Assembly: GCA_038087875.1 (NCBI GenBank)
Contig: CM075988.1
Location: 27,530,001-27,594,000, forward strand
Length of the DNA: 64,000 nt
Source: Malacoraja senta
Lineage: Eukaryota
Direction of reading: 5' to 3'
This document shows positions 1,022 through 54,338 of the stretch, one piece after another. How positions within the stretch are numbered: position 1 is the stretch's first letter; every line of letters starts with the position of its first letter. The notes below the pieces were generated by a model. It worked only from the letters and a program-made list of their open reading frames with translations, was not told where the DNA came from and searched no databases. Made by a program: the position numbers and the translations under genes.

Positions 1022-1339
1022 ATGAAATATTATAAATGCCTTCAGTTGTGTTTATTTGTATAATTTTTAAGTAATTCAAAAAAACAATAAATAATTTTAA
1101 AAATAACTTCCCATATGAAGAAGAGTTGCATCCCAAAATGCCACCCATCCTTTTTATCCAGACATGCTGCCTGGCTCGCTGAGTTACTCCAGCACTTTTG
1201 TCTATCTTTTCCCATATTACTCCACTTTCTATTCTTATGCAGAATCTGAGAGCAGATTCCCTAGATACAATGGCAGGAAATCTCATAAATCATCTTCTAT
1301 TTATAGGAGACCCCAGGGGAACATCGTACAGAGATACAA

Positions 1340-1535
1340 ACAGTAGAGCTGCTGTCTCATGGGTCCAGGGACCCAGGTGTGTTGTGCAGGAAGAATTTGC
1401 ACCTTTTCCCTGGGTTTCCTTTGGGTGTCTGGTTTCCTTCCCACAACCCCAAAGCGTGTGGGTTGGTAGGTTAATTGGCCATTGTAAGCCGCTCCATGAA
1501 TGTAGGTGGGGTGAAATCCTGGGTGAATTAGTGTC
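1340..1535 (+). mobile_element. Degenerate HE1/V-SINE-like tRNA-derived SINE
   Basis: cagtagagctgctgtctca...gggtttcc...ccacaacccccaaagcgtgtgggttggtaggttaattggc resembles the copy at 34131. Confidence 0.65.
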
Positions 1536-1536
1536 T

Positions 1537-1705
1537 ATGTAGATAGACACAAAATGCTGGAGTAACTTGGCGGGACAGGCAGCATCTCTGGAGAGAAGGG
1601 ATTGGTGACATTTTGGGTCCCGCTGCCTGTCCTGCTGAGTTACTCCAGCATTTTGTCTCTATCTTTGATTTTAATCAGCATCTGCAGTTCCTCCCTTCAC
1701 ATAGT
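1537..1705. mobile_element. Penelope-derived pLTR unit, head-to-head palindrome
   Basis: agatagacacaaaatgctggagtaac...gcagcatctctggag followed by its reverse complement ...gagttactccagcattttgtctctatct...cagcatctgcagttcct. Confidence 0.75.
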
Positions 1706-2403
1706 ATATATGTAGAGTAAATGGATTGCAAAGAAATTAGTGGCTGAAAGAGATTGCTCTGTTGTAAGAAAGTGTGGAAATGCAACAAGGACAGGGCTGA
1801 TGGAGTTCGGTTGTTACGTTTGTCACTGCCTCCATTTACCTGCAAACTCCATGCCATCAATAGTCTCCTGAAGACTTGGCAAAATGAAATCCAGACAGTA
1901 AAATCACAACTTCAGACATATCCCAAGAAATCCCAACTTGCACAAGACTTCTGACATGTTCAAGAAAAACAGTTAGGTTTTGCCATGTATCAACTTAACT
2001 TTGTATCTCTGAAACAAAAGTTTAATCATTTGTAAATGTATGCTGCACTAAATCTCTTAATTCAAGTTATTAAATAATTCATTTCATTTAATAATACATC
2101 ATTCATAGACTGTACGACACATTTTTTGAGATCTGGGCTTCAGTTCACTTTTCTAGGAGGTGTTTGTGAATGAGTTTAATAATATTTATTGATTCCCAAT
2201 GAATTAACTTTCTAACTATAGATCACACCAGCTTTTGTGAACTAGATATAATGATAACCCAGCTCTTGATCACATTCATTGGTGGATGAATAAACTATTT
2301 CTCATGATATGGAAGTCTACTGCCTCACCTTGCATTATGAAGATGAAAATTATAAGATGAGCAATCAACATATGCTCGCATGTGGGTAACTGCAAGTTTA
2401 AAC

Positions 2404-5650: not shown

Positions 5651-5811
5651 TTTAGAGAATATACATTTTAGAAGATGCAGTCGTCATGTGGTCTCTTAGT
5701 AAGCATGAGTTAGGAAATCAGACGCAATCAGGAAATCGTGGTACACCCCATCTCCATTACTGCATACATGGTCATCAGTTATAGAACCTCCCAAATCATC
5801 TCAACTTATGA

Positions 5812-6000
5812 TTTTTCCAGCATCTGCAGTTCTTTCTTAAACATTTTGTCTACTCCACTGTGAAATCTCCTCAAGGTATGTCTACTTTGAAGAAGTTCTC
5901 CTCCTCTCTCCGAAGACAGTTTAGCAACCTCCTCTGCCTATTCCTTCTCTCCATAGATGCTGCCTCACCCGCTGAGTTCCTCCAGCATTTTTGTCTACAT
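5812..6000 (+). mobile_element. Penelope-derived short insertion with 11-bp TSD
   Basis: Flanked by tcaacttatga (5801-5811, 6001-6011); contains gatgctgcctcacccgctgagttcctccagcattttt. Confidence 0.75.
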
Positions 6001-7515
6001 TCAACTTATGAATACTTTCTTTACAGAATTTTAGAAGGAAGAATTTTTTTTGCTTGAATGTTATTCAACTTTGGCCAAGAAATCCTATTACGTATGCAAA
6101 AACGTGCAAAATCGAATTTATTCTAAAGTCAATCATTAAATACAGTTTGGTAGGTCATGCAGTTAAAATGCATCCCAGAAAATTCTGTGAGGGGCCCTCC
6201 ATGTGTATAAAATGCTTGGAGATACTGCACACATGAACACAAACAAGCAATTGGCACCACTCTTGTGACATTATTTATGAATAGCACACAGGGTTGAGGG
6301 TCTACGCTGGTTATATTCAAAAGATCCACTCTTAACTTTCCCAACATTTTTCAGTTGGCCAGAACAGGGATACCTATATATAAATATAATATTCCCAAGG
6401 CCAACCATCGAACAGCCCCAAGCACAATGATTCCTGCTCAAGCTGCCTGTCTCCAATGGCATAATGTCCAGCAGAGCAACAAGATATGGCAGTCATTTTT
6501 TTTCTAATACTTACTGAGAGCCAGTCAGTCCCAAAAGTGACATCAATGTCATTTTAAGAGCTGGAGTCACAGTCGGACCAGACAGCAAAGTTTGCAGTGA
6601 ACCCAGACCTTTCCTGTTAACACCAGTTTTATGTATTGAGAATCTATCATGTGCAATGCATAGCATTGAAGTCAAGTGGGGTAAAATGTTGTTGCTCAGT
6701 CTAGATGGATCTCCTATCAGTGCAACTTTAATGCATGTTTTCTTATGCATAAATATTTCTAGTCCTTTATCTTTTATGATAGGAGATTGTAGGTAACTTT
6801 AAAACTGAGTGACAAAGGGATAATGTCAGCTTAAAAGGAGGTTAAGGTCTGAATGGGACTTATGTTTCAGCTTCTGCAACCTGGTAAGAACTTCCAAACC
6901 AGACAGCTGAGAGAGAGAGAGGCTCCAGCTTTCAAGAGTGCACTACAGTACAATGTTCTCATCTCTGTCAATTCACATTAATTTCTGTCTGATGGGGCTT
7001 TCATGTTTGAGTTTATTTATGTTAATACAGTTACAAATGAGTCAAGCACATTATCATCAATTTTCTTTTGACTAAATAGACGATCAACGCAGAAACACAA
7101 AGACAGATGCTACATATGCACACAATCTAGCCAGACATTGTGTATTGCAGCTAGATACATTTCAAACAATATGATCACACTGCACCACTGTTCAAGTTCA
7201 CCACTGACTACATTGGAGAAGGGACTCAGGAATATCTAGAGTTAAACCACATCATCGCAAGTAGAATTAGTGTGACGTATATTATTGCAATGACTAGTGC
7301 AAAAATCATTACATCTGGAAAGAAGAAAAGCATGGAAAACTATTTCACAAATAGATGTTGGAACAGAAATAGTGTTGTATCATGAAGATGGAAGGAAATT
7401 CATCACAGAAAACACCCTTCTTTCCAAATGTCTTTGACGCACGATATGTAGTCAACATATGTGGAACCATTCTCGGCTAAGTATTACATGATTTTCACTG
7501 AGTCTTAAGTTCAAC

Positions 7516-8631: not shown

Positions 8632-9721
8632 GCAAATTCCAAAGAATCACTAGGCACACGATGGCTGGCATTTACTTTGGGATAATTAAAGGACAATACA
8701 TACAAGAGATTCTCAATTAGCATTTAGCAGTAGGAGAAAAAATAAGCTGGAAAATAGGAAATAAAGGGGCAGTCAGTTAAATTTTTAACGTTCTTAGCCA
8801 AGAGAGGGTACTGAGTGTGTTCTTCACCTGTGGCTGGATAGTAGCGAACGGTCTTTATGAATACAAAACATTCTGTGCTTTGGATAAACACACCAGCAAC
8901 ATACATATGGTCAATGGTTTCTTTATTGTCACATGTACCAGGTACAGTGAAAAACATTCTCCGCAAGACTATCCCCATACATAAGCACCCTCGCCACAGT
9001 TAGTATAGTATGGAACGGCCCACCGAGCCCATATTTTGTATATCCACACTAATGTTCACTGTAAAACAACTATTTTTTAAATAGTATTTCAATGGAATGG
9101 AAATACAATATGCCAATAGCAGTGATATTCTACAAGAGAATGTAGGAAAATCCATATTAGTCTTCCTTGACAACACACCTTGATTTGAAACTTGTGCGAA
9201 TATTGCAGATAAGGTAGATATATAGCCTCCAATCCCCTGTGAAGAAAGTGGATATTTACCATGCTGAACATGTCCACATTTCTGTAATCTTCAATTTAAA
9301 TATGTATTATCATGCTAGAAGGAACACTCTTTCTAAAATTAACATGTCCCCATCACCTGCATTACTCAGGAAGTTGAAGTGTGCATCACTGAGTCTGCCA
9401 CATCCCAGAGTTACTGGCAAATTTATTCTGCTAAACTGCTACCACGGAAAGAAACATTGCATCCTTGGGAGTAAACATAAGACTGTTTGGTCAGGTTGAA
9501 AATATCACTGCTATTGGCAACACATCCAGTCACGCTGGTCTGTCCATGAGAATATCTAGCCTAATGTCTTCAAATAAATTACACCCCATGGTCTCCTAGC
9601 AATGATATACTGTTTGGTTGGAACAATTAACAGCAACATATATTCATGTCAGCATGTTGTATTATACTCCATAAATTTATTCTGTGCACTTTAATGCTTC
9701 CAACCAAAGATGATTTTCTAG

Positions 9722-9837
9722 ACGGAGATAGACACAAAATGCTGGAGTATCCCAGTGGGTCAGGCAACATCTCTGGAGAAAATGAATAGGTGACATTTTG
9801 GGCCGGAACCCTTCTTCAGACAATTCCTTCCTGCACC
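9722..9837 (-). mobile_element. Penelope-derived unit with degenerate hammerhead core and 12-bp TSD
   Basis: atgattttctag at 9710-9721 and 9838-9849; minus strand reads gtctgaagaagggttccggcccaaaatgtc. Confidence 0.75.
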
Positions 9838-10097
9838 ATGATTTTCTAGGCATTGCTTTACAACTTTTTGAAATACTTCATACCTTTAGTCCCACATATA
9901 ATATAGAATTATCCATTGTCTTGCTATTTTAAAATAGAGGATATTCCATTTATACCTCTGATATTAGAAAATTAATTTCCTATTAACATATTTTAATACC
10001 ACTGAACGATTACCATATTGGGTACACATTATTTTTCAAAATAGTTACCATTATTATTTAAAAATCAAAAGGGCTTCAATAGATTTTAACTTATTTT

Positions 10098-11720: not shown

Positions 11721-13487
11721 TGACGTGTGCAGTCTGTAAATGCCTGAACTTGGGAAGCTTTCAATGCAAATTCTGCATTGCCTGCTCCTGTTCGCGGAAT
11801 GAAAAGTAAAGAACAAAGCTTATGTGATCTCTCTAATACAACAGCTGCGAGATGCCGTAGACATCAATGGCAGTAACCTGAAATTATCCCAGAACCAGGA
11901 AGCTGAAGATGACGGTACCAAGAGGTTGAAAATCTCGCGCAATGTGTAGTTTTTTAGTCACATGAGCGTTGATGCCATTTGGGGAAGTCTTAAACCTGAA
12001 CAATGCATCTGGGAGAATGAACACCATCAACAACAAAAGTGGAGACAAGGTTTCCTGCTGGGCTTTAAAATATCCCAAAATGTGCAGAGAATTGATCTAC
12101 TTTGGGTTAAGCCAATTTTCAGGAGCAAAATACTATTTGCTTTCCTGTGTTTTTATTAATGATTTTTGAGCTTGTATTTTATGAATGAATTTCTAATAAT
12201 CACAAGCTTGTATCAGCAAAATGATGTTCAAAACATCCAGGCACAAATGGGTATTAAAGAGCCACCTACACAGATCCCTCAAGTTACACACAAAGTTTGT
12301 TACCAAAAAAGTTGTAAAGACATTGACTTTGAACTTTGGAGCTATCTGTGTTCAATGGAACTAATTTGAAACTCTAAAATTAGATCTCTAACTGGATACC
12401 TTTAATCTTGAAAACTCTTATTGCTCACCTTCAACCTATGCTCTCTTGTTTATAATGCACCTACCATGGGAAAAGATTTTGACTCCCTCACCTATTGATG
12501 ACTCTCAGAGTCTTATATACTTCAATCAGGCCACCAGTCAGCCTTCCTCACTCCAGGGTAAAAAAAGCCCAGTCTACCCAATCTCAACTGGCAGGGCCCT
12601 GGCCCCAAACTAACCCACAAACAATTACAAATATTCCATCGTGTAGGACGGGTTACAATTTCTTAATAATTTTTATTAGGTTGGTGTACCAACAGTCTAT
12701 TTTCAGCTGCTCATTGAGAGGGGTTATTCTGTTCCCACCCACCCTCATACCCACCTCCTCCCCCCCCAACCTCATGTCACTGCATTACGACACCCAAGAT
12801 CCTGCTATCACACAGAGCTTTGCCATTTTCCATCTGGATGTCAATCAGCCTATGTCTATTAACTTTCTTTGAGCCAGTATTGAATACAAGAGTTTTCCTT
12901 TATGATATCTGTTGAGATCTGATTTACAAGCCCTAACCAAATTCCTAAACAACTGGAAGCATTTCCCAAAGGTATGACAGATCTTGTATGTAAGCTCATG
13001 GTGAGAAATGGTTGACTGGGCTGAAGAGAAAATTAATGAATTCTCCTCAAACAAAAAGCATCAACTGCACAGAATGAGGAATGTTGGCCCTTTTAGTCAA
13101 TGTCTGTTCTCTACAACAGCAATGCAGTGGTCCCACTCTCTCAGCAGCTTTGAATTATTTTTCTTTCAAGAATTGCTCTAATTCTGTTTTTGAAAACCAT
13201 AACTAAATCTGCTTCCACTATCTTGCCAGGCAATTATTTCCAGATGCTAACCATTCACAGTGAAAAATATATATATTCCCTCATGTTGCCTTTCATTCTG
13301 TTGCCAATCACAAGTCCTCTGGTGTTTGATCCTTGGAAACTCTTTGTCTCTGTCTAGATCCCTCAGTCTTATGAATATCTCTATTCTTCCAATCCTGAGG
13401 GATATCTCTTAAGTCTGAGTAACCCTTCTATATTTGTTATTCATTTCTGTTTTCTTGTCCTTCAAATTTGCTTTCTCTGTCAAGTGC

Positions 13488-13712
13488 TGGAAGGAACTGC
13501 AGATGCTGGTTTACACCGAAGATAGACACAAAAGGCTGGAGTAACTCAGCAGGACAGGCAGCATCTCTGGAGCGAAGGAATTGGTGACTTCTCGGGTCAA
13601 GACCCATCCTCAGAAGTCTGAGGAAGGATCTCGACCCGAAACATCAACCATTCCTTCTCCCCAGAGATGCTGCCTGTCCCGCTGAGTTACTCCAGCATTT
13701 TGTGTCTATCTT
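13488..13712. mobile_element. Penelope-derived head-to-head palindrome with two degenerate hammerhead cores
   Basis: ~95-bp inverted arms centred at ~13616 (cctcagaagtctgagg); + arm reads ctgaggaaggatctcgacccgaaacatc. Confidence 0.8.
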
Positions 13713-19600: not shown

Positions 19601-19805
19601 AGCATCTCTGGAGAAAAGGAATATGTCATGTTTCGGGTCGAGATGGATTAGGATCATTCGAATTGTGAGGCTAATCTAAATCACAATCAAAATCACTGAT
19701 TTGGGTGTAGTGAACATGCATGTTAATACATAATACTACATGTTTACTTTGATACAAAGTTAGGTGTTGATGTGAGTTGGATCCAAAAAGTTTTCATGAG
19801 GATAT

Positions 19806-20017
19806 AAATGCAGAAACAAAGGACAGCAGGTGCTAGTTAATGCACTAAAGGACACAAAGTGTTAGATTAATTCAGCATGTCAGGCAGCATCTCTGGACAA
19901 CATGGATAGGTGACCTTTTGAGTCGAGACCTTTCTTCAGACTGACCCGAAACATCACGTATCCATGTTCTCCAGAGATGCTGCTTGACCTGCTGAGTTAC
20001 ACAACCACTTTGTGTCC
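19806..20017. mobile_element. Penelope-derived palindromic unit with 13-bp TSD
   Basis: Flanks ttcatgaggatat (19793-19805) / ttcatggggatat (20018-20030); inverted arms meet at ttcttcagactgacccgaaac. Confidence 0.75.
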
Positions 20018-20029
20018 TTCATGGGGATA

Positions 20030-21560
20030 TGGGTAGGCTAAGGGAATGGGTGAGGACTTTGCTGAAATAACGTGGAAATATGTGAGGTCCTCACTTTGAT
20101 ATTGAAAAAATGGAAGGACGAGAGCACAACGTCAAGTTGTTGTTATTTAGAAGGATCCATATGTTCTTCTACATGAATCATAGTTGACAAGCAAGTGTGA
20201 GGACAACCAAAAGGTAGGTTTGAAAGGTAGGCTCAAATGCAAGAGGATTTGAGTAGCTGTAAGGACATCCTACTACAATTATACAGGGCCCTGCACATGT
20301 ATCTGGATTATGGAGTGCAAGTCTGGTCATTCTAGTTAACAAAGGATATAGCTGCTTTAGAGGGAGCACAACAAATTCTTACCAGAGTGATTCTAGTGGT
20401 CTAATGTCCTACGAGGAGAAACTAAGCAAACTGGGTCAATGCTTTTGGAGTGTAGAAGAATGAGAGATGATCTCATTGAAACCAACACAATTGTGTTGAG
20501 ACACAATGAGCTGCAGATGTTGGCTTACAAAAAAGACATAAAGTGCTAGAGGCTGAAGGAGGATCCCACTCAAAACGCAACCAGTTGTCCAGAGATGCTG
20601 CCTGACCAATTGAGGCACTCCAGCTTTTCATGTTTTTGAGGCTTGGCAAGATAAATACAAGGATGATATCCAACCCCCCAACCCTCCCTCACCTCCCTTA
20701 GCTGAGGTGACTAATACAAGGAGTACAAAATTGGCCATTCGGGTCAGATATAAGACATTTATTCATCCAAATGTGGTGCATCTTTGGAATTCTCTACTCA
20801 AATTGGTTGTGACACGTTAGTCAATGAGTATAATCAAGGCATGATGGAACTGGCAGCCTCCAACTGGAACCGATCTCGAGGCTCCGGAGGCAGGGCCTGT
20901 GGACTCACCATCGCGAAGCTGGCCGACTTCGGGGCTGTGGTGGCGCTGCGGCTGCGGCCCGACTTCGGAGCTACGGAGGCTTCGGCCGCGGGCCCAGTGG
21001 ACGACAACATCGGGAGCTCGCAGCTCCCAGGTTGGTGACCGATTCTCCGGAGCTCCCACAACAACAGCTTTGTCCGCTGGACTGGAGGGTGGCAGCTTCG
21101 TCCGCCCCGGGCCGCGTAGTTTGAATCGGCCCGTTCGTGGAGATTGGATTCGGTCGCGGGACTTACCATCACCCGGCCGGGGACCCAACATCGAAAGCCT
21201 GGATCGCCTCAATGCAGAGGGAGAACAAGCAAGGAAGAGATAAGACTTTAAGACTTTTTGCCTTCCATCACAGTGAGGAGGTGCCTGGAGTCACTGTGAT
21301 AGATGTTAAACTGTGTTCATTATGTGTTCTGTTACTTTATTTTCTGTTATGGCTGCAAGGTACGCAATTTCGTTCAAACTAATAAGTTTGAATGACAATA
21401 AATGAACTCAACTCAACTCAATTTGTTTGTTTTTTGGATATTAATGGGAACCAAGATACAGGGTTAGTTCAAGAAGAGTTAAAACATCAGTCATGGTCTT
21501 AGTGAAAGGCTAGGCAGGCAAGAGGGCCTGGGTGACCTGCCCCTGCTTCTATTTCTTATG
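20030..21560 (+). mobile_element. Old CR1 RT/3' fragment with nested younger insertions
   Basis: Degenerate tgtgaggtcctcactttg, gcaagaggatttgagta, ttttggagtgtagaagaatgagagatgatctcattgaaac, tggaattctctactc. Confidence 0.65.
20846..21421 (+). mobile_element. CpG-rich SINE-like retroposon with Rex1-type tail
   Basis: GC-rich body; hairpins atcacagtga/tcactgtgat and ttcaaac/gtttgaa; ends gacaataaa + (ACTCA)n. Confidence 0.6.
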
Positions 21561-24500
21561 CTGTTACATGTGCTCAAATGTTAACATTTGTTACGGTGTT
21601 GATCAAAAAGTTCTGCAGTTAAGGATTCATTACTTATTGTAATATTAAGGGTCCCAACATGAAAATTTTTACAGTCATTTAGTATATTTGCAATAGAACA
21701 TAGAATAGTATAGGAACAGGCCCTTTAGTCCACAATGTCTGTGCCGAATAAGTTGCCAAAACGAACTCTTAAATGCCTGTGTATATAATCCACATCCCTC
21801 CATTCCCTGTATATCCATGTATCTATCCAAAAGCCTCGCATCTGCCTTCGCCACCACCCCAGCTGCACAATCCAGGCACTCACTAGCTTTCTGTCAGGTA
21901 AAGTATGAATACATTGGAACAAAATCACTTCAATCCATAAGCAAATAAAATATTAAAAACATAATTACATTATTCTATATTTGATTTACCACTCTCAATG
22001 TATGAATTAAAACATCATGTGATTGCAACAAAATGCACATTCAAATGTATACAGAACATGCCAAAAGTAACTTGCACCAAGTGACAATCTGATAATGAAC
22101 CATAATTTCCATTCAGCAGTGAGGGGTGGTCACTTGCCAAAAACCTTAAAGAGGCCAGGCCACAGAGATGAAGCAGCTTCTGCTGTATGTACTGCGTACC
22201 CAATGTGATTCGCAAGAAGCCACCTCGTCTTATGTAGGATAGACACAATATGCTGGAGTAACTCAGTGGGTCAGGCAGCATCTTTGGAGGGTTCCTTCCT
22301 ACTCATCTAATGTAGGAGATGTGTGGGATTCAGCAATAATGAGGTAATCAAGTATGCACAGCAGACAATTTGATGAGAAAGTCCTCGCAGCGCACAAGAT
22401 AAGAAATAAAACTCACTCAATTTTACAACTTTTCAATAACTTTATAAAAAAATGATATTCCCGGCCAGGATTTTGCTGGACTTTTCCAGACAAGAGAGGT
22501 TCTTCAGCATTAATTAGAGCTCCTTACATTCTTAAAGCTCTTAGTTACACTTCATTTATTGTTGCTTAAACGTTTCACAGTAAGTATTGACGCATACCAT
22601 TGAACCATCGACTTCTGAACTGATTTAATCCACAACTCTTGCAACAACACAACAAACTTCATCTGTCGAGAATCCAATAATCTCTTACTGCTAGAATGTC
22701 CTGTCTAGCTGTGCACATATACGCACCATCCTGGTCATTTTTACAGGGACATCTGTTAAGGATTATACTGTCTTTATAATTGGAAAGTCCATGCTATTTT
22801 GTGATTGATGATAAGAGCTAATTTAACTTTATGCAAACCCAACTGTTGTAACATATGAATTATAGTATATACATAATTCAGGGGGTTCAGCCGCAGCAAT
22901 TGATGTAATACTGCAGCTAATAATTTAATGAAAATGAAAATGTTTGCGTGTTGCTCATATGTCCATTAGACTGTTATTTTTGGCACTTATCAGGACAATG
23001 GTAATTTTCCCAGATCAAAGTTCAGCATTTTTCATTCCTCACACATTCTATTCCCTGTTGGTTCTTTAAATGCATTTCTGTACATTTTCTTGAATAAAGC
23101 AACCTTTTTAAACATTGCTAGGATTCCATTTTGAAGAAACCAGAACCATCCAAATAATCCATTTGGTGAAATTGTTGCTGACAGACCTATTTAATTCAAA
23201 AGACAGCCTTTCACAATAAGCCCATGCACAGAAATGGTCAGCTTGGCAGAGTCTTAACATAGCCAAGGTTCATTCACTTCAATTCTGCATATATTTCTGC
23301 CTTCCAATCCTGTTAATAATATAACCACTCATTTCACTTCAAGAAAAATAATGTATTGAACAGCGGCTTTGACATAGCCAAGTAGGTCAAGTATGATAAA
23401 AGGGCATTATTGATTTAAAAAATGACGGGCGCATGAACACACTGAAAGCTTAGAGTCAGAGGAAAGAGGTAGAAAGCCTTGGAGAGAAATTTTATGTTTA
23501 ACATCTGGGGCAGTTGACAGTGGGATAGAAGATAGAATTTGAGGAACACAAAGATTTCAATGCTGGAGGAGGCTAGATACAAAGAGGAGACGGGGTTATA
23601 TCCAAAACTGATCAACTTCTCTTGGGATCCCCGCGTTTATAAGAACTTCCTTCTCAGCAGAATTGGTCACACACTCATGGAACCAGGGGTGAAGGAGATC
23701 ATTAAACTCATATGTTTTCCCCAGCTCTTTCAACACACAAACCCGTCCACATCACTCCCTGCACCTTTTCCCATTTTCCTGCATTAAAAAAAATTCTTTA
23801 TAGCTCTTCACACATTGAAAGTGAACAATATAAAATTACATTACTGATGCAAGTTGCATAGGATGTTATTGAATAAGAAATGGTTGGCAAAATGAGATAA
23901 AGAATGCATCAACAAGACCTACAGGACAGTCATTCTTAAGAAGGAATGCAAGCGTTGTTTGTTGATCTATTACATTCAGCATGCTTTATTTACATCTATG
24001 ATCAATATTCATATATAATCTGCCAAGCAACTATAAATATTATCAACTAAAAGAAGAAGAATTGTTTGAGAGATTTGGAGTAAGTAAAACAAAATTTTCA
24101 AGGAATCCAGTTCATAATGATTTTGTTTATTGGCAAGAACTGATAGCAGCAGTTACTAAATCCTGATCTAAACGCTATTGTAAGCATTGTGAATCGACCA
24201 AATAAACAGCCTACAACTAAACACAAATAAAAATATTGCCTTTTCTCTCCGCAGTGCACAACCACAGGAATGTCCTGAATGTATTTAGTCACTGCAAATC
24301 AGAGACTGACTCTGTGGAGAATGGTTTGCAGTGATTCATGCTTGATTATATTTATCTGTATATTAAATGAATCAAAAATACTAGCTAAAGCTGACTGATC
24401 TCCTGTTCACAACAGAGAATATTTCAAAATCAATATTGCCAAAGATAGAGCAAGGTGGTTATGTAATAAATAACTTTTGGGAAAATGGTTAAAATGAATT

Positions 24501-24844
24501 ATAATTGAAGTGAGAATCAAGTCTCAAATATGCCTGCAAGCTGTAATACCAACCAACATTTTACACACATACACAATATTCAGAATATATTTACTTTATT
24601 AAAATTCACTGTGTGAACACCAATAGAAATTCTATTATAAATATGACATTTGTCAAAGTTGCATTTATATCAAGTGATAGACCAACTTCTGCCATGACCA
24701 ATTCCAAGATCAAATCAAAAATTGAATTCTTTCAACACTGCAAGAACCTTTGCAATATTAATATTTTATTTTCAGCTCGAGTCAATCGGAATAATCATAT
24801 TTCGCTTGGGCAGCTTATAACCCAGTGGTATGAATATTAATTTC

Positions 24845-25125
24845 TCTAACTTCAAGTAGCCCCGGCATTCCTCTCTCTCTATCCCTCCCCCACCTAAATC
24901 GCACCAGCTTCTAGTTTTCACCCAACACATAGCTAACAATGCCTGTTTCCTTTATCATCATTACGTGTTGGAATATCTTTCATTCATTGTTCTCTATCTC
25001 TCTACATCATCGTCGCTATCTCTCGTTTCCCTTATTCCTCTCAACCCGAAAAGTCACCCATTCCTTTTCTCCAGATATGCTGCCTATCCCGCTGTTACTC
25101 CAGCTTTTTGTGTTTATCTTTGGAA
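24845..25125 (+). mobile_element. Longer Penelope pLTR fragment
   Basis: tctaacttcaagtagcc plus a pyrimidine-rich stretch leading into acccgaaaagtcacccattcc...gttactccagctttttgtg. Confidence 0.65.
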
Positions 25126-25246
25126 TAATCTTATTGCCTGCTCCACCATCACTCATTGGCACATAGTCTTCAATTGTCAGTCTCCTAAAGAGATCAAGGA
25201 TGACTGGCATAATAAATTGAATAATCTCACATTGGATGGTCAAAAG

Positions 25247-26507: not shown

Positions 26508-27463
26508 GATCAAAGCATATTGGGGGGGAAACCTGGATGATGTTTGATTAGGGTGTCAGGATAAGGCTCATGCAATGTTTGCAGTATTAATAAGCATTAA
26601 AAGTCACATCTGTATTTATCTATTTTAACTTTTTTTGACAATTTTGCTAAATAATGCTGACTGCGTCTTCTGATAGGTAAATGATAATTACATTTTGGCA
26701 CCTTAATCTGTATAGTAGGTCAATGATTTATCTCCGCTGTTTATAAGTAATAGGACCTTCCATTTCCTTACATTAGTTTTATATTATCAAGCTCTGTCTC
26801 ATTGACAGAGGATAAAAATATCCCATTTGCGTTATTACAATTACTAAAGGTTGCGGTTGGTTGCACCAAAAACTATTCAAGATATGTATTCACATATGGT
26901 ACATAATTTGAACCATATTGTCAAGAATGTTTTAATCAATAGCACATATATAGGCATGCTATCTTTTCCACAATAGAATATGTCTAATATTTGAGTAATA
27001 CATTTTTTACATTTTTAAGAAATAACCAGCAAGTAATAACAATATGAGATGGAACTATTGATCAGATCTTGTAGATTATTTTTTAATAGGATAATAATTG
27101 TATGCTAATCTGATTTCCCTGAGAGGCAAACAGTGGCAGAATGATTTCTATTCAGAATGAGGCAGCTGAGCCATTTTGGATACTCAATATGAGTCACTCA
27201 ACATGCCCATACATTAATAGAAAACAAACATTGGATTAATGGAATGATTGGGAAATATACATTGGGATCACAATCAGAAATGAACTCACATCAATTTTAA
27301 CGGGGGAAAACTTCAGGGTCCTGACATGAAACGTCGCCTATCCATATCCTCCAGAGATGCTGCCTGACCCATTGAGTTACTCCTGGACTTTGTTTATTTT
27401 GAAAACCAGCATCGGCAATTCCCTGTGTCTACCTTTAAAAGCCGACTTACTGAAGGTATCATG

Positions 27464-27558
27464 TAGATAGACAAAAATGCTGGAGAAACTCAGTGGGTGA
27501 GGCAGCATCTATGGAGCGAAGGAAATAGGCGACGTTTCAGGTCGAGACCCTTCTTCAG
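27464..27558 (-). mobile_element. 95-bp Penelope-derived insertion with 15-bp TSD
   Basis: actgaaggtatcatg at 27449-27463 and 27559-27573. Confidence 0.85.
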
Positions 27559-27560
27559 AC
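27528..27560 (-). ncRNA. Minimal type I hammerhead ribozyme-like core
   Basis: Minus strand GU-CUGAAGA-A-GGGUC-UC-GACCU-GAAAC-GUC-GCC contains CUGANGA, stem II, GAAA and a GUC triplet, as in Penelope minimal hammerheads. Confidence 0.6.
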
Positions 27561-28625
27561 TGAAGGTATCATGCGGTGCTTTTATGAATAAGATGCACAT
27601 AAAACTGATGTAAACCAATAAATAATACAGCTAAATTACTTTTAATGAAGTAAGAGGTGTTGCCGCATTGGATATTTGCCTGCACATAGGGCAGGTACAA
27701 AAATCACTAAGAAATGCAGCAATCTCCATTTTATATTTCTGCACATTCCTCTTGTTGCAAATTGTATCTGTTTCCATTTTGCCTACAACAGAAATTATTT
27801 GTAACAAAGCCCCAAGAGGAAGGACTGCCAAGAGTCACAGCTGGAAAAAATATAAAGTACGCCTAAAAGAGTTGGCCATAATTTTGAGCAAAATCTTATC
27901 ACGGTCATAAGTCTTTGCATAATAAAATTGTCATATTTCAATAAGAGATAGCTAAAATCTTGGTGGCCCTGCATCATCCTAAAAAAAACTTTCAATAAAT
28001 GGAAGAATAGAAATATTTTATTTGTTATTTTAAACCTTATTCGGCTGGTTTCACATTAAGAAACGGATTTCGATTTCAGATTACATTTCCCCATCAAAAC
28101 TCACTAATTATTACAGTATTTAACAATGTGTCGAGAAATGAAAGGAAATAGATTAATTCATATTTACAGTAAAGGGATTGATTTATTAATCTAAGAAAGG
28201 TTATTCAAGGTTACATTTGTATGACTGTTAATGGAATTCCACCAGTGAAGTGCAATGAAGAACAAGGACTAAATCATTCGCCTTTCATCTCTGGGATTTA
28301 GTACTGAATTCAGTATATATAATTAAAAGTCTCATCTTGACCACTTCCTGTTTGCACTGTGCTTTGATTTTAGAAAAAACGCTACCACATATTGCTGTGA
28401 TTTTTTGGCCATCTTACTCGTCCTCCTCCGCTGCGCAGGCCCCGAGGATTTTTCCCATCGATGAAAAATAAAATACTTATTAGTGTTTAAAAAATCTTGA
28501 GATTCTCTCTCCTGTCAATCGCCGCCATGAAGGCCACGCTCCTTCCGGTGGGAGGGGGAGGGACTATAAAACACGGAAGTGTGGGCATGGCTCAGTCTGT
28601 CTGCAAGATGGCGAGGGAGAGGTCA

Positions 28626-29452
28626 AGATTCAAGAGAGTTTATTGTCATGTGTCCCAGATAGGACAATGAAATTCTTGCTTTGCTTCAGCACAACAGAAT
28701 ATGGTAGGCATGACTACAGAACAGATCAGTGTGTCCATATACCATTATATAAATATATACACACATGAATAAATAAACAGATAAAGTGCAAATAAACAGA
28801 TAATGGGCTATTAATGTTCAGACTTTTGTTTGAGTTGAGTTTAATAGCCTGATGGCTGTGGGTAAGTAGCTATTCCTGAACCTGGACGTTGCAGTCTTCA
28901 GGATCCTGTACCTTCTACCTGAAGGTAGCGGGGAAATGAGTGTGTGGCCAGGATGGTGTGGGTCCTTGATGATGCTGCCAGCCTTTTTGAGGCAGCGACT
29001 GCGATAGATCCCCTCGATGGAGGTCAGAGCCGATGATGGACTGGGCAGTGATTACTACTTTTTGTAGTCTTTTCCGCTCCTGGGCACTCAAGTTGCCGAT
29101 CCAAGCCACGATGCAATCAGTCAGCACGCTCTCTACTATGCACCTGTAGAAGTTAGAGAGAGTCCTCCTTGACATACCGACTCACCGTAATCTTCTCAGG
29201 AAGTAGAGGCGCTGATGTGCTTGCTTTGTAATTGCTTCAGTGTTCTCGGACCAGGAGAGATCTTCAGAGATCTCTCCTGGTCCGAGGAATTTGCACGCCC
29301 AGGAATTTGAAGCTCTTGACCCTTTCCACCATCGACCCGTTGATATAAACAGGACTGTGGGTCCCCATCCTACCCCTTCCAAAGTTCACAATCAGTTCCT
29401 TGGTTTTGCTGGTGTTGAGGGCCAGGTTATTGTGCTGGCACCATTTGGTCAG
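28626..29452 (-). mobile_element. Rex1/Babar 3' fragment nested in the Helitron
   Basis: ORFs 29182-29382 (ISEDLSWSENTEAITKQAHQRLYFLRRLR) and 28915-29175 (TLSNFYRCIVESVLTDCIVAW). Confidence 0.88.
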
Positions 29453-29542
29453 TCGGCCTCTGTCACGTCTCTGTCTGAGCTGGGAAACTACAGAACACTG
29501 TGAGTATGCAATGTACTTGAATAAATGATTTGTTAGCCCTTA

Positions 29543-29770: not shown

Positions 29771-29885
29771 GAAACCACTAATTTCGGCCCACACGGCCCC
29801 TATTAGCCGAGAAACCAGTCCCTTTTGCCCAAAATACCAGTATTAGCACAGGAAGAGCATTTAGGCCCAAAAGGCCCGTGCCAGG

Positions 29886-30065
29886 TACACAAAAATGCTG
29901 GAGAAACTCAGCGGGTGCAGCAGCATCTATGGAGTCTGAAGAAGGGTTTCGGACCGAAACGTTGCCTATTTCCTTCGCTCCATAGATGCTGCTGCACCTG
30001 CTGGGTTTCTCCAGCATTTTTGTGTACCTGGGATTTTCCAGCATCTGCAGTTCCTTCTTAAACAC
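29886..30065. mobile_element. Penelope-derived palindromic unit with hammerhead core and 14-bp TSD
   Basis: Flanks aggcccgtgccagg (29872-29885) / aggcccttgccagg (30066-30079); ctgaagaagggtttcggaccgaaacgtt at ~29936. Confidence 0.8.
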
Positions 30066-30406
30066 AGGCCCTTGCCAGGCCAGGAAAAGTCCAGAAAATG
30101 TGCCTTTCACTGAGATTTCACAGATTTTTTTTAAAAGGGCCCCTTCATCCCATCTGGCCAGTTCTAGCCCAGGAGTCCGTTCGGCCCATCCGTAAGTATT
30201 CCTCCTGCAAGTATTAAACCTCACCCCAGTATTTTTCTCCCTCCCTTCATTTGCTCCCTGTGAGATCCAGGCCAGGATAGACTTTCCTCCTTCACTGCTG
30301 TGGTCTGCAGAAAAAGATGAAAAATGTCTAAAATTGATTCTCCACCCTCTCCCCCTTCTCTCTCACAGAGTCTCTCACCCGTTTTGGGCAGAATTTCTGG
30401 CAGTTT

Positions 30407-41870: not shown

Positions 41871-44719
41871 AGTTAACCTTCCTTACTATAAACTTCTATG
41901 ATTTATGTATACCGTAATTCATGTTTTTGTAAGTTTAAGACTACATGCATGTGATGCTGCTGCAAGCAATAATTTCATTGTACCTGTACCTCATTGGGGA
42001 TATGACAATATACTCAAGTTGACTGGACTATCTAACTGCAAGGTGCTTATTACACAATTACATTTATTGCACTGCTGTGAACGCTTGCGTTTTAATAGTT
42101 TCAACCAACCAAGCATTTCAGCTGTTTCACCAGTGCTGTAGCCCTCACATGTCTTCGATGGAGCTAGAAATGTGAGTTAAGATTTGGATGAAATGTATTA
42201 TTATTATTATGCAGCACATATCTCATGTGGACTTCCAAATTGCTGGATGCAATGCTTTCCAGGATAATCAATTTCCCGCTCAAACCTTTTGAACTAGCCC
42301 TATCATACATCCATGCATTGCACTTAACATTCTTTTCCAAACACTAATGAGACCATTGGCTGGTGGCCAAGCAGTCAGACATGTTAATTGGCACTTTGCT
42401 GAATGCTTGCTCACATAAGGCCCACTGAGAAAGCAAGTACAGAGCAGCCCATATTAGTCAGTTGAGATTCCAAGCATGAGGGGCTTCTAGGTTGTCAACG
42501 TCAGCTCTGTGCTATAATGCAGCCAGAACTGCTGGCAGAACAGTTCCATTGTTCTATTATTTAAATGTTTAAGATTCCAGGTTTATTCTGTCATTGATTG
42601 CACCAAACAAAAATTCCCCCTAACAATTAGGACCAAATATCAACGATCTCCACCATCTTAGGAATGCGCAAGCATTCTTTGAATCCAGTGGTAGTTCTAA
42701 TTCCCCTACTACCAAACATTAGCAGAGAATAAGTGAAAAAGAATGGTTGATATTTTTAGTCGGAACCTTCTTCAGACTGAAAGTAGAGGTGACTGAAACT
42801 AGAGGCGAGAAAAGGCCAGAACAAATCAGTGTCAGCAACGGATGACCTCAGTTGGCTGGGAAGGTGGGATAACAAGAGGGATACAAGGATGCCAGTGGCA
42901 CTGGTAGGATGACGAGGGTGGGGGATGGCTCCTTCCTAACCGTTCTGACCTATCCTACTCCAAACTCTTGTCATACTTAAGGTAGTAGTTCAACCTCTTG
43001 GTAAGCTTCACACTCCTCCAGGAGTCTTTCCAAGAACTAAAGGTCATGGTCTAATGTTGATACCAGTTGACTCTCCTTCCTCTGCCTGCACCCTCCCCTT
43101 CAAGAATTTTGCCCTTTTAGCTGCTTGTTAGGTGAAAGTATGATGGTTGTTAATTAAATTATATCCTGCCATTGAAATCAGAAGGACCTTTGTCTTATTT
43201 ATCCATTATCATGCCCCACCAATGCTGCTTCCTCTTTAAAATCAAGCTTATTACTTTGATGGGAAAAATTAAGAAAATATATTATATATGGATGATTTCA
43301 GACCAAGGGTCTTCAACCTGAAACATTAACTCAGTTTCTCTTTCTACCAATGCCCCCAAGTGTTTACAGCAATTTCTGATTTCTTGAATGTTTCTTAATC
43401 ATTCTATTGACTAGAATGTGCTCACCTATATTTAGGCAAAGGTATTGCTTTTCAAGTCTCCTGTTTGCAGGTGAGAAAATACAGTCCTGTTGGCAAAAAT
43501 ATGCTAAATTGAAGAAGAGAACTGGAAATTCTGAGTATGTAACAGAACCAAGTGATCTCATTCATATTTATGGCGTGATTTTAAACTTTCATTTATCAAT
43601 GTCTGCTCTGTTACCTATATTTCATTCCTCTGATTTTCTCTGCCAATATGACTTGTCTCAATAAAGCTGTTAACTCCTTGCTGGGTTACCGTTCCTTTTT
43701 ATGCTACCATCTACAGGTTGTCACCAACAATGTGTGTAAGGATTCAGTGAAGGTTGGTTGGTTCCTTTACCATGGTCGTCGGTGGTTGAGGTGCTAACAT
43801 GATCAATCACAACCCTGTCATCAGATCATGTCAACATGTGCGCCTTCACGGCCAAGAAACGTAGGGGATTCCACCAGACTACAAACAACATCAAGAAGAG
43901 TGAGCAATTTTCCTTTCCTAGTTTTGAGCGATTGGGAGCTGTGTTGAATCCCTATAAATTCTCTACAGTGTCTGAATTCAAGAGCATTGTGCCTAAGAAC
44001 ACAAAATCCCATTGGTTTACAAGAGACAGCTAACAACCATCAAGCTCATATAATTCACCTTAGACTTGGAATATATTTGGTTCAAACACAGATTAACTAA
44101 ACTCAGGGAGCCATTGATAGCCATTTGTTATTCATAGAATATTACAGCAAAGAAGGCCATTCTCCATTGAAATCATACTAGCTCTTTGCAAAAACAACTC
44201 ATCTTATCCCAGTGACCTGCCACTTTCCATGGCCCTGTAATTTCTTGAATCCAGGTATTTATCCAGTTCCCTTTTGAATGCTACAATTGAATGTACCTCC
44301 ATTCCTACCAGATGAAATGGATTGCAGACTCTGACCATTTACTGCATATAAATATGTATTTTATCGTGTTCATTTGCCAATCACCCTCATTCAATATCCT
44401 CCATATTTTCACCCCTTTGTCAATGGGAATAATTTCTCTCTGCCTACTGCAAACATAGCAATTATACCTTTAAACATCTCTCACAGATCCTTGTGCAATT
44501 TCTTCCAATACAACAACCTGACCCTTTCCAAACTACACAATCAAAATTCTATTGATGTAAATCTCTATGTTGAACTCGGGACCTGTCTTCTGCCATTAAA
44601 CTACTTAGAACATTTTTATACCCCTAATCAAATTATCCATGCCTGCATTGATAAAAAAAACGTGGGCATCAGTAGGGCTTGGGGGGCAGGGGGGGGGGGG
44701 GGGGAATTGGCAAGTGGAT

Positions 44720-47428: not shown

Positions 47429-49210
47429 GTTGGCTTTATAAATTCGACATTTAATCCATAAATTGATGAGGAAATTTCGTGCTGATATTCTCCGCCTCCT
47501 TGTTTTTTGGGACTGGAATGCTGGGACAGACCTGAGCACATTGAAACATCAGGAGAGGGGGATGCCACTGCGGGATATTTACATCTTCACAACGCACGAC
47601 TCTCCAAGATGTCCCTTTACCAACTCATTCCGTTCATTGCAGCTGCCCAGATGAGCAGTGGAGTGTGCTGGAACCGTCTTTCCAGGGATTTGATATGACA
47701 GGTCCGTTTAGTTGAAGGTTGATTGATTGGTTTCAACGGGTGAACGGAGAACTGTGACTGCCCGAACTGACATTGCACACACTTTCCTGTCTGAAAATTG
47801 CAGAGAGCAAGTCTAACCTAAAGTCTGCTAAACGTATAACACGTTGTTTCTGTGCGAGCACAGAATGGCTTGCTGCCTACTTGTGACTGACTCTGTTCCT
47901 TCTTGCAAGTTTTATTTCAATATTAAAAGCATGTTGATTTAAACATGAAATAAAAGAAAAGCTACCATCTTTAGTTTAAATTTAAACTAGATCCCATCAG
48001 TTCCCTCACCCAACAGTTATTAAACCATTGTTTTTGCTGCCTGCTGAAGTGCTGAGAAATGTAACTGAATATTTTCCTGCAGATATGTCATTGCAATATG
48101 ACACTTGTTTTCATCAGCCATTTCCAACGTGGTGTTTAACTATTTCAATTAAAAAGGAATGATTACAAAAATATCGTAGTATGCACAAACGTCAACATTT
48201 GAGGTCACAGATAATGGTTTTGAACTTTCCAAATTCTATTCTAGCTTCCAATATTGATACCTGATTTCTCCATTTAGTGGAGATACAAGAGATGGCAGTT
48301 GCTAAAATCTTGAGCAAAACACATAGTGTTGGAGTAACTCAACGGTCAGGCAATGTCTGAAGAAGTGTCCCGAACCAAAACGTCGCCTGTCCATTCGCTC
48401 CAGTCCGAAGAATGGTCCTGACCGGAAACGTCACCTATCCATTCCCTCCACAGATGCTGCCTGACAAAAAAACAATGCTGATGAATGAAAACATTCCCTT
48501 AATGTACATTTTCTTCCTCAAAATTCCTTGGCAATATTTTTTTACTTTGTTGTTCTACCAGAGGAAGGGCAGTATTTGTTTACTTTGTTCTACAGAGACT
48601 GTAAGATTAGACGAACAACTCTTTTAAAGAGTTAGTACATGTATAGTGGGCTGAATAGCTTTTAGTGTGTTGTTGTATTCTACTAACCATCAACAATCGC
48701 TGTCTTGCCATCAGGCCAAACATTGATCCAACCTCACAGGTACAAAATGGATTCAGTAGAGCTAATAGGACTTGATGTTTCAATCCCTGTAGTAAGTCGG
48801 CACTCTTGATATTGGCAGAGGGATTGGAGTGGTGAAAGGTAGGGAAGGTACGTCATCGGGGTCGTCAGGTGGGCACCATCCTTCTTTGACGTTCCATTGA
48901 TAAGCCCACAACATCTCCAGAGACTGATCTATGCTCTGTATCTAACTTAATCTGCAAATGTCTTGACATCAACAATAGGTCCAAAACTGTGTGTGAGAGT
49001 GGAGGGGGTTGGTGGGGTGAATGGTGCTTTGGATGAAAACATACTGTCACAGCCACTGGCACACTTCACATTAGTGTGAACTTGGACATAAATAGAGGTT
49101 GAAGACATTTCTGTGGCATCAGTTCAAAATGACTGCATAATAAGCAACCATTGGCAGCGGCAAACTGTTTGAAGTTGTCAGGGTGGCATAAGAACGTCAG
49201 GGTAGGCTGT

Positions 49211-49436
49211 GTAGGAAGGAATTGCAGATGCTGGTTTAAACTGAAGATAGATATGAAAAGCTGGAGTAACTCAGAGGGTCAGACAGCATCTCTGGAGAAA
49301 AGGAATAGATGACGTTTCAGGTCGAGATCCTTCTTCAGACTGTCTCTGAAGGGTCTTGACCCGAAACGTCACCTATCCCTTTTCTCCAGAGATGCTGTCT
49401 GATCCGCTGTGTTACTCCAGCTTTTTGTATCCAGCC
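49211..49436. mobile_element. Penelope-derived palindromic unit with two hammerhead-like cores and 14-bp TSD
   Basis: Flanks tcagggtaggctgt (49197-49210) / tcagagtaggctgt (49437-49450); arms meet at cttcttcagactgtctctgaagggtc. Confidence 0.85.
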
Positions 49437-50299
49437 TCAGAGTAGGCTGTCATCTACTGGTTGCTCAGAATTTAATCTACTTCATAACTCACCTCTCAGG
49501 TGCAAGAGTCCAATAGGCAGCAACTATAGACAGTGGGCTCAGGTATTTTTTGAAATGTTGGCATCAAATTGTGATCTGAATAGCAATGCCAAGCAAAAAT
49601 AAAACTGTTGGTATTAAAATATGTTTTGATGTTTTTAACATGATAAAACTGACAATAATGGTCACATCCTACATAATAATTAGGAAACATAAGCAGAGAA
49701 ATACTTCTGCGGGATAATGTTCAATATGGAATCCATTGCAGAATAGTACCAAATGATGACTTGATTGTTTTATGGCTGTAGCTGCATTGCCTGTGGCCTT
49801 CAAGGAACAACTATGTCAATTTTCTGGCTGATGTTTTGTGACACCATTTAGTTCTAATGGATTAGTGAACTACTCCATAAGTGTGAAGAACCAAAGATGA
49901 CAGAAAATTAAAAGAAAAACAGTTAACAAGATTCTGCCTATTACAAAATAATTGCTACAATCTATCATTAAGGACAAATTATTTGAGCTTTTAAGAGAGT
50001 TAAAACAAGTCAAATTAGAATTTGTGAGAATTAAATTTTCTAATAATTAGAAACAAACTTAATAATTTAAAATCTGAGTATGATATATTCTTACTATGTA
50101 AGGAAAATGGAGGTGAGGCTTGTGGATGGCATTGGAATACAATTTTACCAATCAGGAGAACAATTATATAACAGCTTCAATTACATAAGACATTGCTGAG
50201 AAAAAAGCAAACAACTGGTGGAACTCAATGGGTGAGGCAGTGTCTGTGGAGGGAACTGGACTGATGGTGTTTCAGGTCAGGACCAAAAGAATTGGCGAG

Positions 50300-52150: not shown

Positions 52151-53451
52151 GGGTTCTATATTCTTAGTGTGTTCTACATTCTTATCACATGTTCATATGC
52201 TCATAATAGGCTCAAGAATGAAAGGCCAACACTTACTCTTAGGAAGTCCTGGAGTTACGTGAAACCTCTTTAGTTAATGACTGCCAGATAATTTTAATGT
52301 TAGGCCATCACATTAAACCCCTGAAGCTCTGTAAAATCTGGAAGAGTGAGGGTGATCTCATTAAATCATAGAAGGTTTTGAAATTACTTGATGAGGCAGA
52401 TGTTGAGACATGGATTTCCCTTCTGAGAGTTTAGAAGTAGGGAAGTAAACTAAGAACTGCGAAAGGGAAATTTCCTCATTTCAAGTGTGGTGATTTTTTG
52501 AAATTTTCTATTCCACATGTCTGAAGATACTCAGATATTAGATATATTCATGGCTGAGAAAGTGAGCCATGACAGACCAACAAGAATATATCTACCAATA
52601 AGGAAATTATGATTTAAAAATGAAGTTATTTTCACCCCTTGTTGAGATGTATGAACTTGTACTCTGGAAGATGGACACTGGGAGGCAGATGATAAAAAGA
52701 CCATAAACTTATTTAATAGTGGAGAAAAAAAACAAAATGCTGGAGGAACTCAACGGGTTAAGGCAGCATTTGTGGAAGGAAATGGGAAGACAACATTTTG
52801 GGTCAGAACACTTCTTCAGATGTGAGAACGAAGCCAAAGAACAGTAGAGCTGCAGGAATCACAGAGAGGCTGAAGTGAGAGAGGGTCTCACTGAACTCCC
52901 ATCCGAGAATGAATGAGAACTTCAAAGTGGGCATACTTTAAGGAGAATCTGCAGATAAATTGTAAGATGATATCCTGTTCCAGTGTTTATGAGGAAATCA
53001 GCATGATGACTAGGTAACTCGCACACATGCTCATTTTTTAAACTAGTACGAGTAAATTGAATTTTAATCCTGTACGGACAGATTGAAGGACTGCAGAAAC
53101 TAAGGCAGTTCTTGAATTTAGGCAGGCAATGTTCAAAAAAGATAGATGAACCATAGATGCTGCTATATCAGGAACAAGTTCAGGTTAGTTTAAGGCACAA
53201 CCTCTGGTTCACTTAATTTTTGGAGCAGAGTGCCACCTAGTGTGGGAAATGGTGATATAATTAAACCATTCAAAAGAAAAAAAGATTAGTGCTTGATACA
53301 GTGATCAGAGCAAAATGTTGATTTAAAGGCAGTAAAAATATTTGTGAAAAAATGTCTAGAGCATTTAATTATCAGAATAGAATGAATCATGTTAATTAGC
53401 ACAACTATCAGCAAAGATCTAGAAATTGCACTCAGATACAACAGAGTACAT

Positions 53452-53645
53452 GTGTAGGAAGGAACTGCAGATGCTGGTTTACACCGAAGATACACACAAA
53501 AAGTTGGAGTAACTCAGCAGGTCAGGCCGCATCTCTGAAGAAAAGGAATAGGTGACATTTCAGGTTGAAGAAGGGTCTCAACCTAAAAGTCACCCATCCA
53601 GAGATGCTGCCTGACCCGCTGAGTTACTCCAGCATTTTGTGTCTA
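53452..53645. mobile_element. Penelope-derived palindromic unit with 14-bp TSD
   Basis: Flanks acaacagagtacat (53438-53451) / acaacagagtgcat (53646-53659). Confidence 0.8.
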
Positions 53646-54338
53646 ACAACAGAGTGCATCCCAGGCTGTAGTCAAAGTCTTTCTTATGAACATCAGGTGC
53701 TTTGCAATTAAGGTGCAAGGGCTGAAGCAAATACTGGTCAAGCAATAGAAAATGGAAAATTTTAAAATTGCAGATGCTGGAAATTGTAGATGTCTTCATT
53801 TTGGGGAATATTTCTCACTATCTATACCCCTAAGTGATAGTAGAGTGATGATAGGGCAGGAGCTGTATCTCCATTATTTGCATGGGGTCAGGGACCAGCT
53901 GAGAAATTGGACGTGATTAAAGAACATACAGGAGATTGCAGAGGGAACAGTCCCTTCAGAATGTTAAAAAGTGGAGAGTATCAAGAATTAATATGCATAT
54001 GCATTAAAGTGTTATCTCTGCTGAGTGATAGCACTCTCAGTTTTCAAACTGAAGTTGTACATTCTGAGATTAAATATAGGAATTTAGCACTTCATTTCGG
54101 CTGTCAATTTTTGGATTATTGAGAGGCTGGCAAAAATACTCTGGTAATTTTAAACTGCGTCACTCTCAGTCTGTTTGAATGGGCAGGATGTGTTTGGGGA
54201 TAATGTTAAGTGGGGATCCAGAAACATCTGCTAATGTCTCGGTGTCATTTATCTTTCAACCAAAAGATATTACCTGGCAAAGTCTTTCATTTTCTGTCAG
54301 CATACAGCTTTTTAACACAAATTGATGGCCACATTTCT

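Follow-up and report, generated by a model that had tools for sequence, protein, structure and literature searches.

The insertion at 27449-27573 raises the question of what kind of element leaves short, hammerhead-bearing units of this sort dispersed through a genome, and whether the units seen across the whole 64-kb stretch of Malacoraja senta DNA that was analysed (the window) form a family of their own or are by-products of Penelope-like elements (PLEs). It would seem that they are short insertion products of EN+ PLEs belonging to several old subfamilies, a reading to which we give a probability of roughly 0.8, and they are best read as short cDNAs of the PLE pLTR that were primed at two internal RT start sites.

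Composition of the family and the focal copy

Iterative nhmmer searches of the 64-kb window identified 34 related arms that merge into 26 loci (0.4 loci per kb) and occupy 5.1% of the sequence; this agrees with the initial annotation, which had claimed about 25 related units. Thirty of the arms have no upstream extension and four do. Units of 70-300 bp, as they had been described, are indeed present, but most of them are composite and not single units: the seven loci for which direct repeats had been listed comprise five head-to-head pairs, one circularly permuted copy and one plain monomer, which is the focal copy only. Positions along an arm are numbered from C3 of the hammerhead. The focal copy and its neighbour are as follows.

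27449..27463 (no strand): left copy of the 15-bp target site duplication (TSD), identical to 27559-27573, with a score that 0.6% of random placements attain
27464..27558 (minus): tail-less focal single arm that extends from the first core base of the hammerhead (27558) and ends at the short 3' site (about +94)
27531..27558 (minus): minimal type I hammerhead, with features as described in PMC4209133
27559..27573 (no strand): right TSD copy, with microhomology to the upstream sequence of the element on the minus strand
27314..27432 (plus): older, oppositely oriented arm with a tail, an independent neighbour of the focal copy

The 95-bp insert was previously said to open with CUGAAGA, stem II, GAAAC and GUC, and it does so on the minus strand, with an A between CUGAAGA and stem II, between exact 15-bp repeats at 27449 and 27559. 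In the focal hammerhead CUGAAGA is followed by an additional A, a stem II of 4 bp, GAAA and a palindromic ACGU, loop III being absent, and the cut is predicted between 27531 and 27530; stem II includes a G10.1-U11.1 wobble, and stem I has 2 bp only, one strand of which is supplied by the right TSD copy. Because the final 5-7 nt of the TSD (minus strand) match the element's own upstream sequence, the 5' edge of the focal copy is ambiguous between -7 and 0. An E-value scan of 27300-27700 against Rfam gave five matches, all sub-threshold and none of them a hammerhead, the best of which (MIR7723) was rejected as a hairpin between the focal arm and the opposite neighbour arm. Further single arms were found at the following positions.

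1108..1217 (plus): single arm with a 9-bp TSD candidate, from nhmmer and repeat scoring
14648, 16206, 19541, 32856, 50187, 56283, 57706: further single arms, from nhmmer

All seven direct-repeat pairs of the initial annotation were recovered where it had placed them, with lengths of 11-15 bp and 0-1 mismatch. When direct repeats were scored at all 26 loci, a score of at least 10 was reached at eight of them, the eighth pair being 22224/22302, as compared with 2.5% of 3000 random placements (binomial p 1.5e-7); weaker or borderline pairs lie at 1108/1209, 1529/1702 and 19516/19677, and a convincing TSD is absent at the other 15 of the 26 loci. The TSDs vary in length from 9 to 16 nt among loci, variable length being a feature of EN+ PLE insertions. 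As the TSDs directly flank short inserts these are separate retroposition events, and the earlier view of them as individual events and not eroded elements is borne out.

DNA-type contigs of four runs were compared over 26600-29500, three of the runs being from relatives with flank contigs that are ~3.5% divergent. In all three relatives the orthologous contig starts at 27540-27541, 18-19 nt inside the insert, and runs through the right flank to about 28340; the focal insertion thus appears to be common to 3/3 relatives, with contigs that cover the right part of the insert and none that spans it. The empty-site check that had been proposed yielded no empty site among the three relatives, and the TSD is neither confirmed nor refuted by it. 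Copies of the family are clearly very numerous in each of the four runs, with a summed depth over the focal unit of 15.7-23.1 million as against 21-96 in the unique flanks, a depth that is not a copy number. Another very high-copy repeat, whose summed depth amounts to millions in every one of the runs, lies at 28250-29500, and at 25650-26550 there is a GC-rich low-complexity island with GA-rich and C-rich repeats that is possibly a host promoter region. A pattern scan of metagenomes returned one locus with a 21-nt match and no similarity beyond it, which was put down to chance.

The hammerhead and the probable Penelope-like origin

A strict hammerhead descriptor has seven matches in the window, all of them in family arms (7/34), as compared with five in total in 50 shuffled windows. 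The motif is of the minimal type I, with a CUGANGA/GAAA/UH core, an extra base before stem II and a palindromic 15.2-16.2, and it lies in the pLTR as in EN+ PLEs. The excess conservation that the initial annotation had expected of the CUGANGA/GAAAC core is found, with 6/167 mismatches to the majority at non-CpG core positions against 133/964 elsewhere and a mismatch as low as that of the core in 0 of 20000 base-matched column draws. This test used the 17 arms that cover the core and extend to +60, one arm whose projection included its partner arm having been dropped, and it favours arms with an aligned 5' end, such that too few arms with an eroded 5' end are represented. At G12, which is a CpG site, 7/17 arms show decay. 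The combination of a conserved non-CpG core and a decayed CpG G12 points, at the level of sequence, to a hammerhead that would be under selection in the source elements and decay neutrally in the copies.

No covariation was seen in the stems of the 14 gap-free arms among the 19 that span the motif (five arms with indels were left out), the observed score being reached by 50/500 shuffles, and 81% of stem cells are paired in the same 14 arms. The hammerhead fold is not predicted for monomers, the probability of stem II being 0.0 in three copies and ~0.14 in the majority profile, and the focal arm as a monomer folds with z = -0.6; in the short copies stem I has 2 bp. Minimal hammerheads are described in PMC4209133 as cleaving poorly and as dimers, and the anole minimal hammerhead, as reported in PMC11167929, cleaves only with its protein.

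Four arms extend upstream into pyrimidine-rich sequence, and one of these is linked to the end of an ORF.

24791..24859 (plus): end of a broken ORF, identified by motif pattern, with a GIY-YIG-type terminal motif and a stop codon; one internal stop
24860..25139 (plus): pyrimidine-rich 3' UTR/pLTR followed by a family arm that is 92% identical to the short arm at 32856; a long 5'-truncated copy
42736..42930 (minus): older arm fragment with pyrimidine-rich upstream pLTR, the upstream similarity being weak and judged mostly by composition
44730-44999 (plus) and 55558-55900 (minus): copies resembling 42736..42930, again with weak upstream similarity judged mostly by composition

The peptide encoded by the ORF end at 24791 (~22 aa) was first presumed to be the end of a PLE protein, and database searches gave no confirming match to any PLE protein. 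Its final residues fit the pattern that closes PLE endonuclease domains in the supplement of PMC8557442, and this terminal motif has its sole match in the window here, with an arm in the same orientation ~230 nt downstream of it, as compared with 0.21 matches per shuffled window. The arm itself has an internal deletion over the 5' half of the hammerhead.

Two copies (5801 and 52717, described below) carry the element's downstream, ORF-start-like sequence. Only a Leucoraja erinacea gene model was matched by the ORF-start-like peptide (82% identity over 39 aa), with arm, tail and ORF-start-like segment in colinear order, whilst the Atlas gave nothing usable (best score 0.76); judging from a 41-aa open frame, the ORF-start-like methionine would lie ~45 nt past the tail. 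Residues about 313-375 of this L. erinacea model, which is TRIM-like, are a translated family repeat and reflect either exonisation or an error in the gene model.

The Penelope origin that had been proposed is supported; searches with the two peptides did not find a partner that encodes RT and GIY-YIG and has the same pLTR, and since they found no PLE protein the identification as a PLE rests on the hammerhead, the anatomy of tails and inversions and the short terminal motif. A CR1/L2-type LINE at 38.7-41.1 kb was considered as the partner and rejected, because self-comparison of the window shows no sequence that it has in common with the arms. This LINE (38704-41128, minus) has a 633-aa frame (RVT_1 E 1.5e-32, with an endonuclease remnant) followed by a 212-aa frame, and related fragments are present at 10114-10640 and 54346-54650. 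A 251-aa frame at 62867-63622 (minus) with no Pfam match resembles what we take to be the C-terminal part of another non-LTR RT, and a 161-aa frame at 58695-59180 (plus) has a CCHC-like start and motifs presumably of an R2/Hero-type restriction-like endonuclease, for which Pfam gave only a weak zinc-binding match.

Arm ends, paired arms and the proposed template of the short copies

The arms have two favoured 3' ends, at about +92 to +97 and at +129/130, and the interval between the two is the tail, an optional feature of one end as it is in EN+ PLEs; no repeat tail is found on the arms, which end at these fixed internal sites. The arm at 32856 is split from its tail by ~70 nt that resemble the end of another repeat (32760-32856, minus), a nested insertion; an isolated tail fragment is found at 53766-53783, near locus 53438, and a further tail arm at 63964-64000 is cut by the edge of the window. 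Head-to-head pairs, which correspond to the inverted copies of EN+ PLEs, occupy 10 of the 26 loci (no strand is assigned to them).

1529..1716: pair with the tail on the right arm; probable TSD
9710..9849: full arm paired with a 16-nt tail-only arm; 12-bp TSD
13484..13711: pair with the tail on the left arm and with two arms that extend to the hammerhead; without a recognisable TSD
19793..20030: pair with the tail on the left arm; 13-bp TSD
20490..20640: older pair with the tail on the left arm
22224..22317: pair with a 12-nt tail-only arm; 16-bp TSD with 2 mismatches
29872..30079: pair with the tail on the right arm; 14-bp TSD
48285..48465: irregular locus with one inverted arm and two partial tandem arms, both of which start at the hammerhead
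49197..49450: pair with the tail on the left arm; 14-bp TSD
53438..53659: pair with the tail on the left arm; 14-bp TSD

In nine of the ten pairs the tail aligns on exactly one arm, the exception being the irregular locus 48285-48465. The partners of a pair are usually near-closest to one another, with ranks of 1-4 out of 29 and one of 15 in the six pairs compared. Each arm carries sequence that is missing from its partner in 5/9 pairs, which favours two primings over fold-back; fold-back as the sole source of pairs was set aside, as in these pairs neither arm contains the other. The asymmetry of the arms could instead reflect later deletion at the centres of palindromes, and PMC3846280 proposes for inverted copies self-priming on antisense RNA instead.

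The 5' starts of the 30 short arms, which were set by eye, fall at -5..+2 in 16 cases and at the cut site in one, with the remaining 13 scattered from +7 to +51, and their clustering has a p of about 1e-6 against uniform truncation. Given these proportions (16/30 and 1/30), the template was in most events not set by hammerhead cleavage. The context before the arm in the long copies is a run of pyrimidines, then TCAG, then the arm itself. The initiator consensus is YYANWYY, and by its sequence this upstream context would fit an initiator and also a 3' splice site. In Drosophila virilis Penelope an intron ends at the 5' edge of the hammerhead (as described in PMC4209133) and the start site is 46 nt upstream of that intron. 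There is no first exon common to the short arms, which would favour an RNA that begins just before the hammerhead.

In the scheme that we would propose to accommodate these ends, transcription of the element would begin within the pLTR a few nt before the hammerhead, or processing would fix the 5' end of its RNA at that place. A GIY-YIG endonuclease would cut the target with the 9-16 nt stagger that is seen in the TSDs, the enzyme itself being putative, and RT would start inside the RNA at ~+94 or ~+130 from the hammerhead, the interval forming the tail; the two ends are those observed, and there is an in vitro precedent in PMC11167929. A start in the 5' pLTR copy would run off the end of the RNA after 95-135 nt and leave a solo arm, priming of both target strands, one per site, would give a head-to-head pair with one tail, and priming in the 3' pLTR would give ordinary 5'-truncated copies, of which 24791-25139 is the single example seen. 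The copied RNA would be mostly uncut, with the hammerhead probably maintained by selection in source elements and decaying neutrally in the copies.

Two copies have their parts in a permuted order.

5801..6011 (plus): permuted copy with an 11-bp TSD, in which tail and ORF-start-like sequence (5812-5935) are joined to an arm that begins at the cut site (5936, +-1)
52717..52955 (minus): second permuted copy, older and without a TSD, in which an ORF-start-like segment is joined to an arm starting at -1

In the first of these the tail and ~90 nt lie ahead of an arm whose first base is the one past the cut site (+-1 nt), and since the L. erinacea model reads arm, tail and segment in order the copy is permuted by nearly one full turn. 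From the short RT site its path leads back to the cut site, crosses to a 3' end within the ORF start and returns to where it set out, in very nearly one complete turn of a ~200-nt circle; copy 52717 follows the same path via the -1 end. The segments of the two copies are homologous (70% over 70 nt, E 4e-6), and the 52717 segment scores above all of ~1000 random stretches of the window. With n=2, these copies could be explained by any of a circular RNA, a jump of RT from the 5' to the 3' end or a tandem donor with a deletion. They hint at a circular or end-jumped RNA template, and that small PLE RNAs, circular or end-jumped, served as templates for some of the insertions is a tentative proposal that we consider unlikely to hold. 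If true and common genome-wide, it would be fossil evidence that the minimal PLE hammerhead cuts in vivo, and, on the same condition, a very high-copy vertebrate family would have a short fixed-end 5' pLTR RNA as its main template.

The separate retrozyme- or SINE-like family of a tiny RNA mobilised in trans, as first put forward, is unsupported, and cis and trans donors are indistinguishable in this window. It is opposed by the 92% identity of an ORF-linked arm, by the ORF-start-like sequence in two copies and by retention of the hammerhead at the 5' end, and at the 26 loci there are no whole-unit head-to-tail arrays and no tRNA head. A SINE is defined by a Pol III small-RNA-derived head and a LINE-like or simple-repeat 3' end; scans for tRNA genes and Rfam families reveal no such head on the arms, and their fixed ends are of neither kind. 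No tRNA gene is present in the window, and Rfam matches at gathering thresholds number 0 across it.

A more specific form of the idea is a dedicated non-autonomous, SINE-like family derived from the pLTR, whose own short masters would be transcribed from the pLTR promoter, giving transcripts that comprise the tail and the first 100-160 nt of the ORF and are mobilised in trans by PLE protein. The numbers of short and long copies (30 vs 4), the fixed 5' ends and the two permuted copies, which imply RNAs with a 3' end a little way into the ORF start, all speak for this, as do reports that rotifer pLTR sequences can act in trans (PMC3846280) and that Chlamydomonas has non-autonomous PLEs (PMC8557442). 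We nevertheless hold it to be distinctly unlikely: short and long copies fall within one subfamily (92%), the 5' end of an autonomous mRNA would yield identical products, and a tRNA head is lacking. Furthermore, the anole PLE, as described in PMC11167929, requires as template a sequence 3' of the RT start; the arms lack this sequence and are therefore probably dead ends.

Very improbable is a non-LTR retrozyme, in which the hammerhead would cut tandem arrays to monomers that are circularised and reverse-transcribed. Retrozymes share with the units a type I hammerhead and long TSDs (as described in PMC7229834), are pLTR-derived and have been found in one chondrichthyan (according to bioRxiv 10.64898/2026.07.22.740005), and copy 5801 is permuted with its junction at the cut site; the other side of that junction, however, is the ORF start and not a second hammerhead. 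Within the window a whole-unit head-to-tail array is seen at 0/26 loci, 48346/48402 being two partial arms of ~50-60 nt, and 16/30 arms retain the whole core 5' of the cut site whereas 1/30 starts at it. The motif is minimal and not the canonical one, which has a 6-bp helix I and loop-loop contacts, stem I being of 2 bp in the short copies.

Finally, that the units are eroded or recombined remnants of full-length PLEs, with solo pLTRs left by deletion, is scarcely credible despite the 15/26 loci without a convincing TSD and the recombination to which TSD-less solo pLTRs are ascribed in PMC3846280, as pLTR recombination would retain the pyrimidine-rich upstream part that is missing from 30/34 arms and would not yield TSD-flanked head-to-head pairs or tail-only arms of 12-16 nt.

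Relation to known systems

By four of six features the units are EN+ PLE insertion debris, the defining ORF, a single frame for a telomerase-like RT and a GIY-YIG endonuclease, being represented by putative remnants only. A full-length copy of the partial tandem form pLTR-ORF-pLTR is absent from the window. The pattern is real and has mostly been described already for Penelope-like elements; the classification is an ordinary one, dispersed pLTR fragments with minimal hammerheads having been published since 2014. No published name for the M. senta pLTR family was found in the literature searched; it may already have one in Repbase or Dfam, or in supplements to the bioRxiv preprint, which lay outside the comparison. 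The value of the family is as a large natural sample of how PLEs integrate and of the role of their hammerhead. Testable predictions on RNA start, two-strand priming and in vivo cleavage follow from the fixed 5' ends, the rule of one tail per pair and the two permuted copies, and at 0.4 loci per kb one skate assembly would yield ample counts.

EN+ PLEs are described as leaving 5'-truncated copies, solo and inverted pLTRs and an optional tail of 30-40 bp (PMC8557442, PMC3846280, PMC8969392). The loci of the window resemble such insertions, as described there, in their head-to-head arms, one-end tail, 9-16 bp TSDs, 5' junction microhomology and pLTR hammerhead, and differ in that nearly all inserts are without an ORF, half of them start within an 8-nt window before the hammerhead and two copies are circularly permuted. 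The hammerheads are like the minimal type I motifs of metazoan PLEs described in PMC4209133 in having an extra base between 9 and 10.1, G10.1-C11.1 and a palindromic 15.2-16.2 without loop III, and in being mostly single and dispersed with some opposite-strand pairs; unlike those motifs they have a stem II of 4 bp and a stem I of only 2 bp, the latter as in D. virilis. The hosts named in the parts of PMC4209133 considered here are fishes, coelacanth, frog and reptiles, and cartilaginous fish are not among them.

The anole Poseidon element PAc, as reported in PMC11167929, likewise has two internal RT starts that bound a tail ~100 nt downstream of the hammerhead, and in vitro both target strands were extended there with uncut RNA as the main template, a likeness to the scheme proposed above; the ORF of PAc starts in stem II, whereas the ORF-start-like methionine here would lie beyond the tail. 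With the metazoan non-LTR retrozymes described in PMC7229834 and bioRxiv 10.64898/2026.07.22.740005 the units have in common that they are non-coding, carry a type I hammerhead, are related to pLTRs and have long TSDs. Those retrozymes, as they are characterised in these sources, consist of tandem units of 150-450 bp with canonical motifs and form circular RNAs, whereas the skate window contains solo and inverted arms with minimal motifs.
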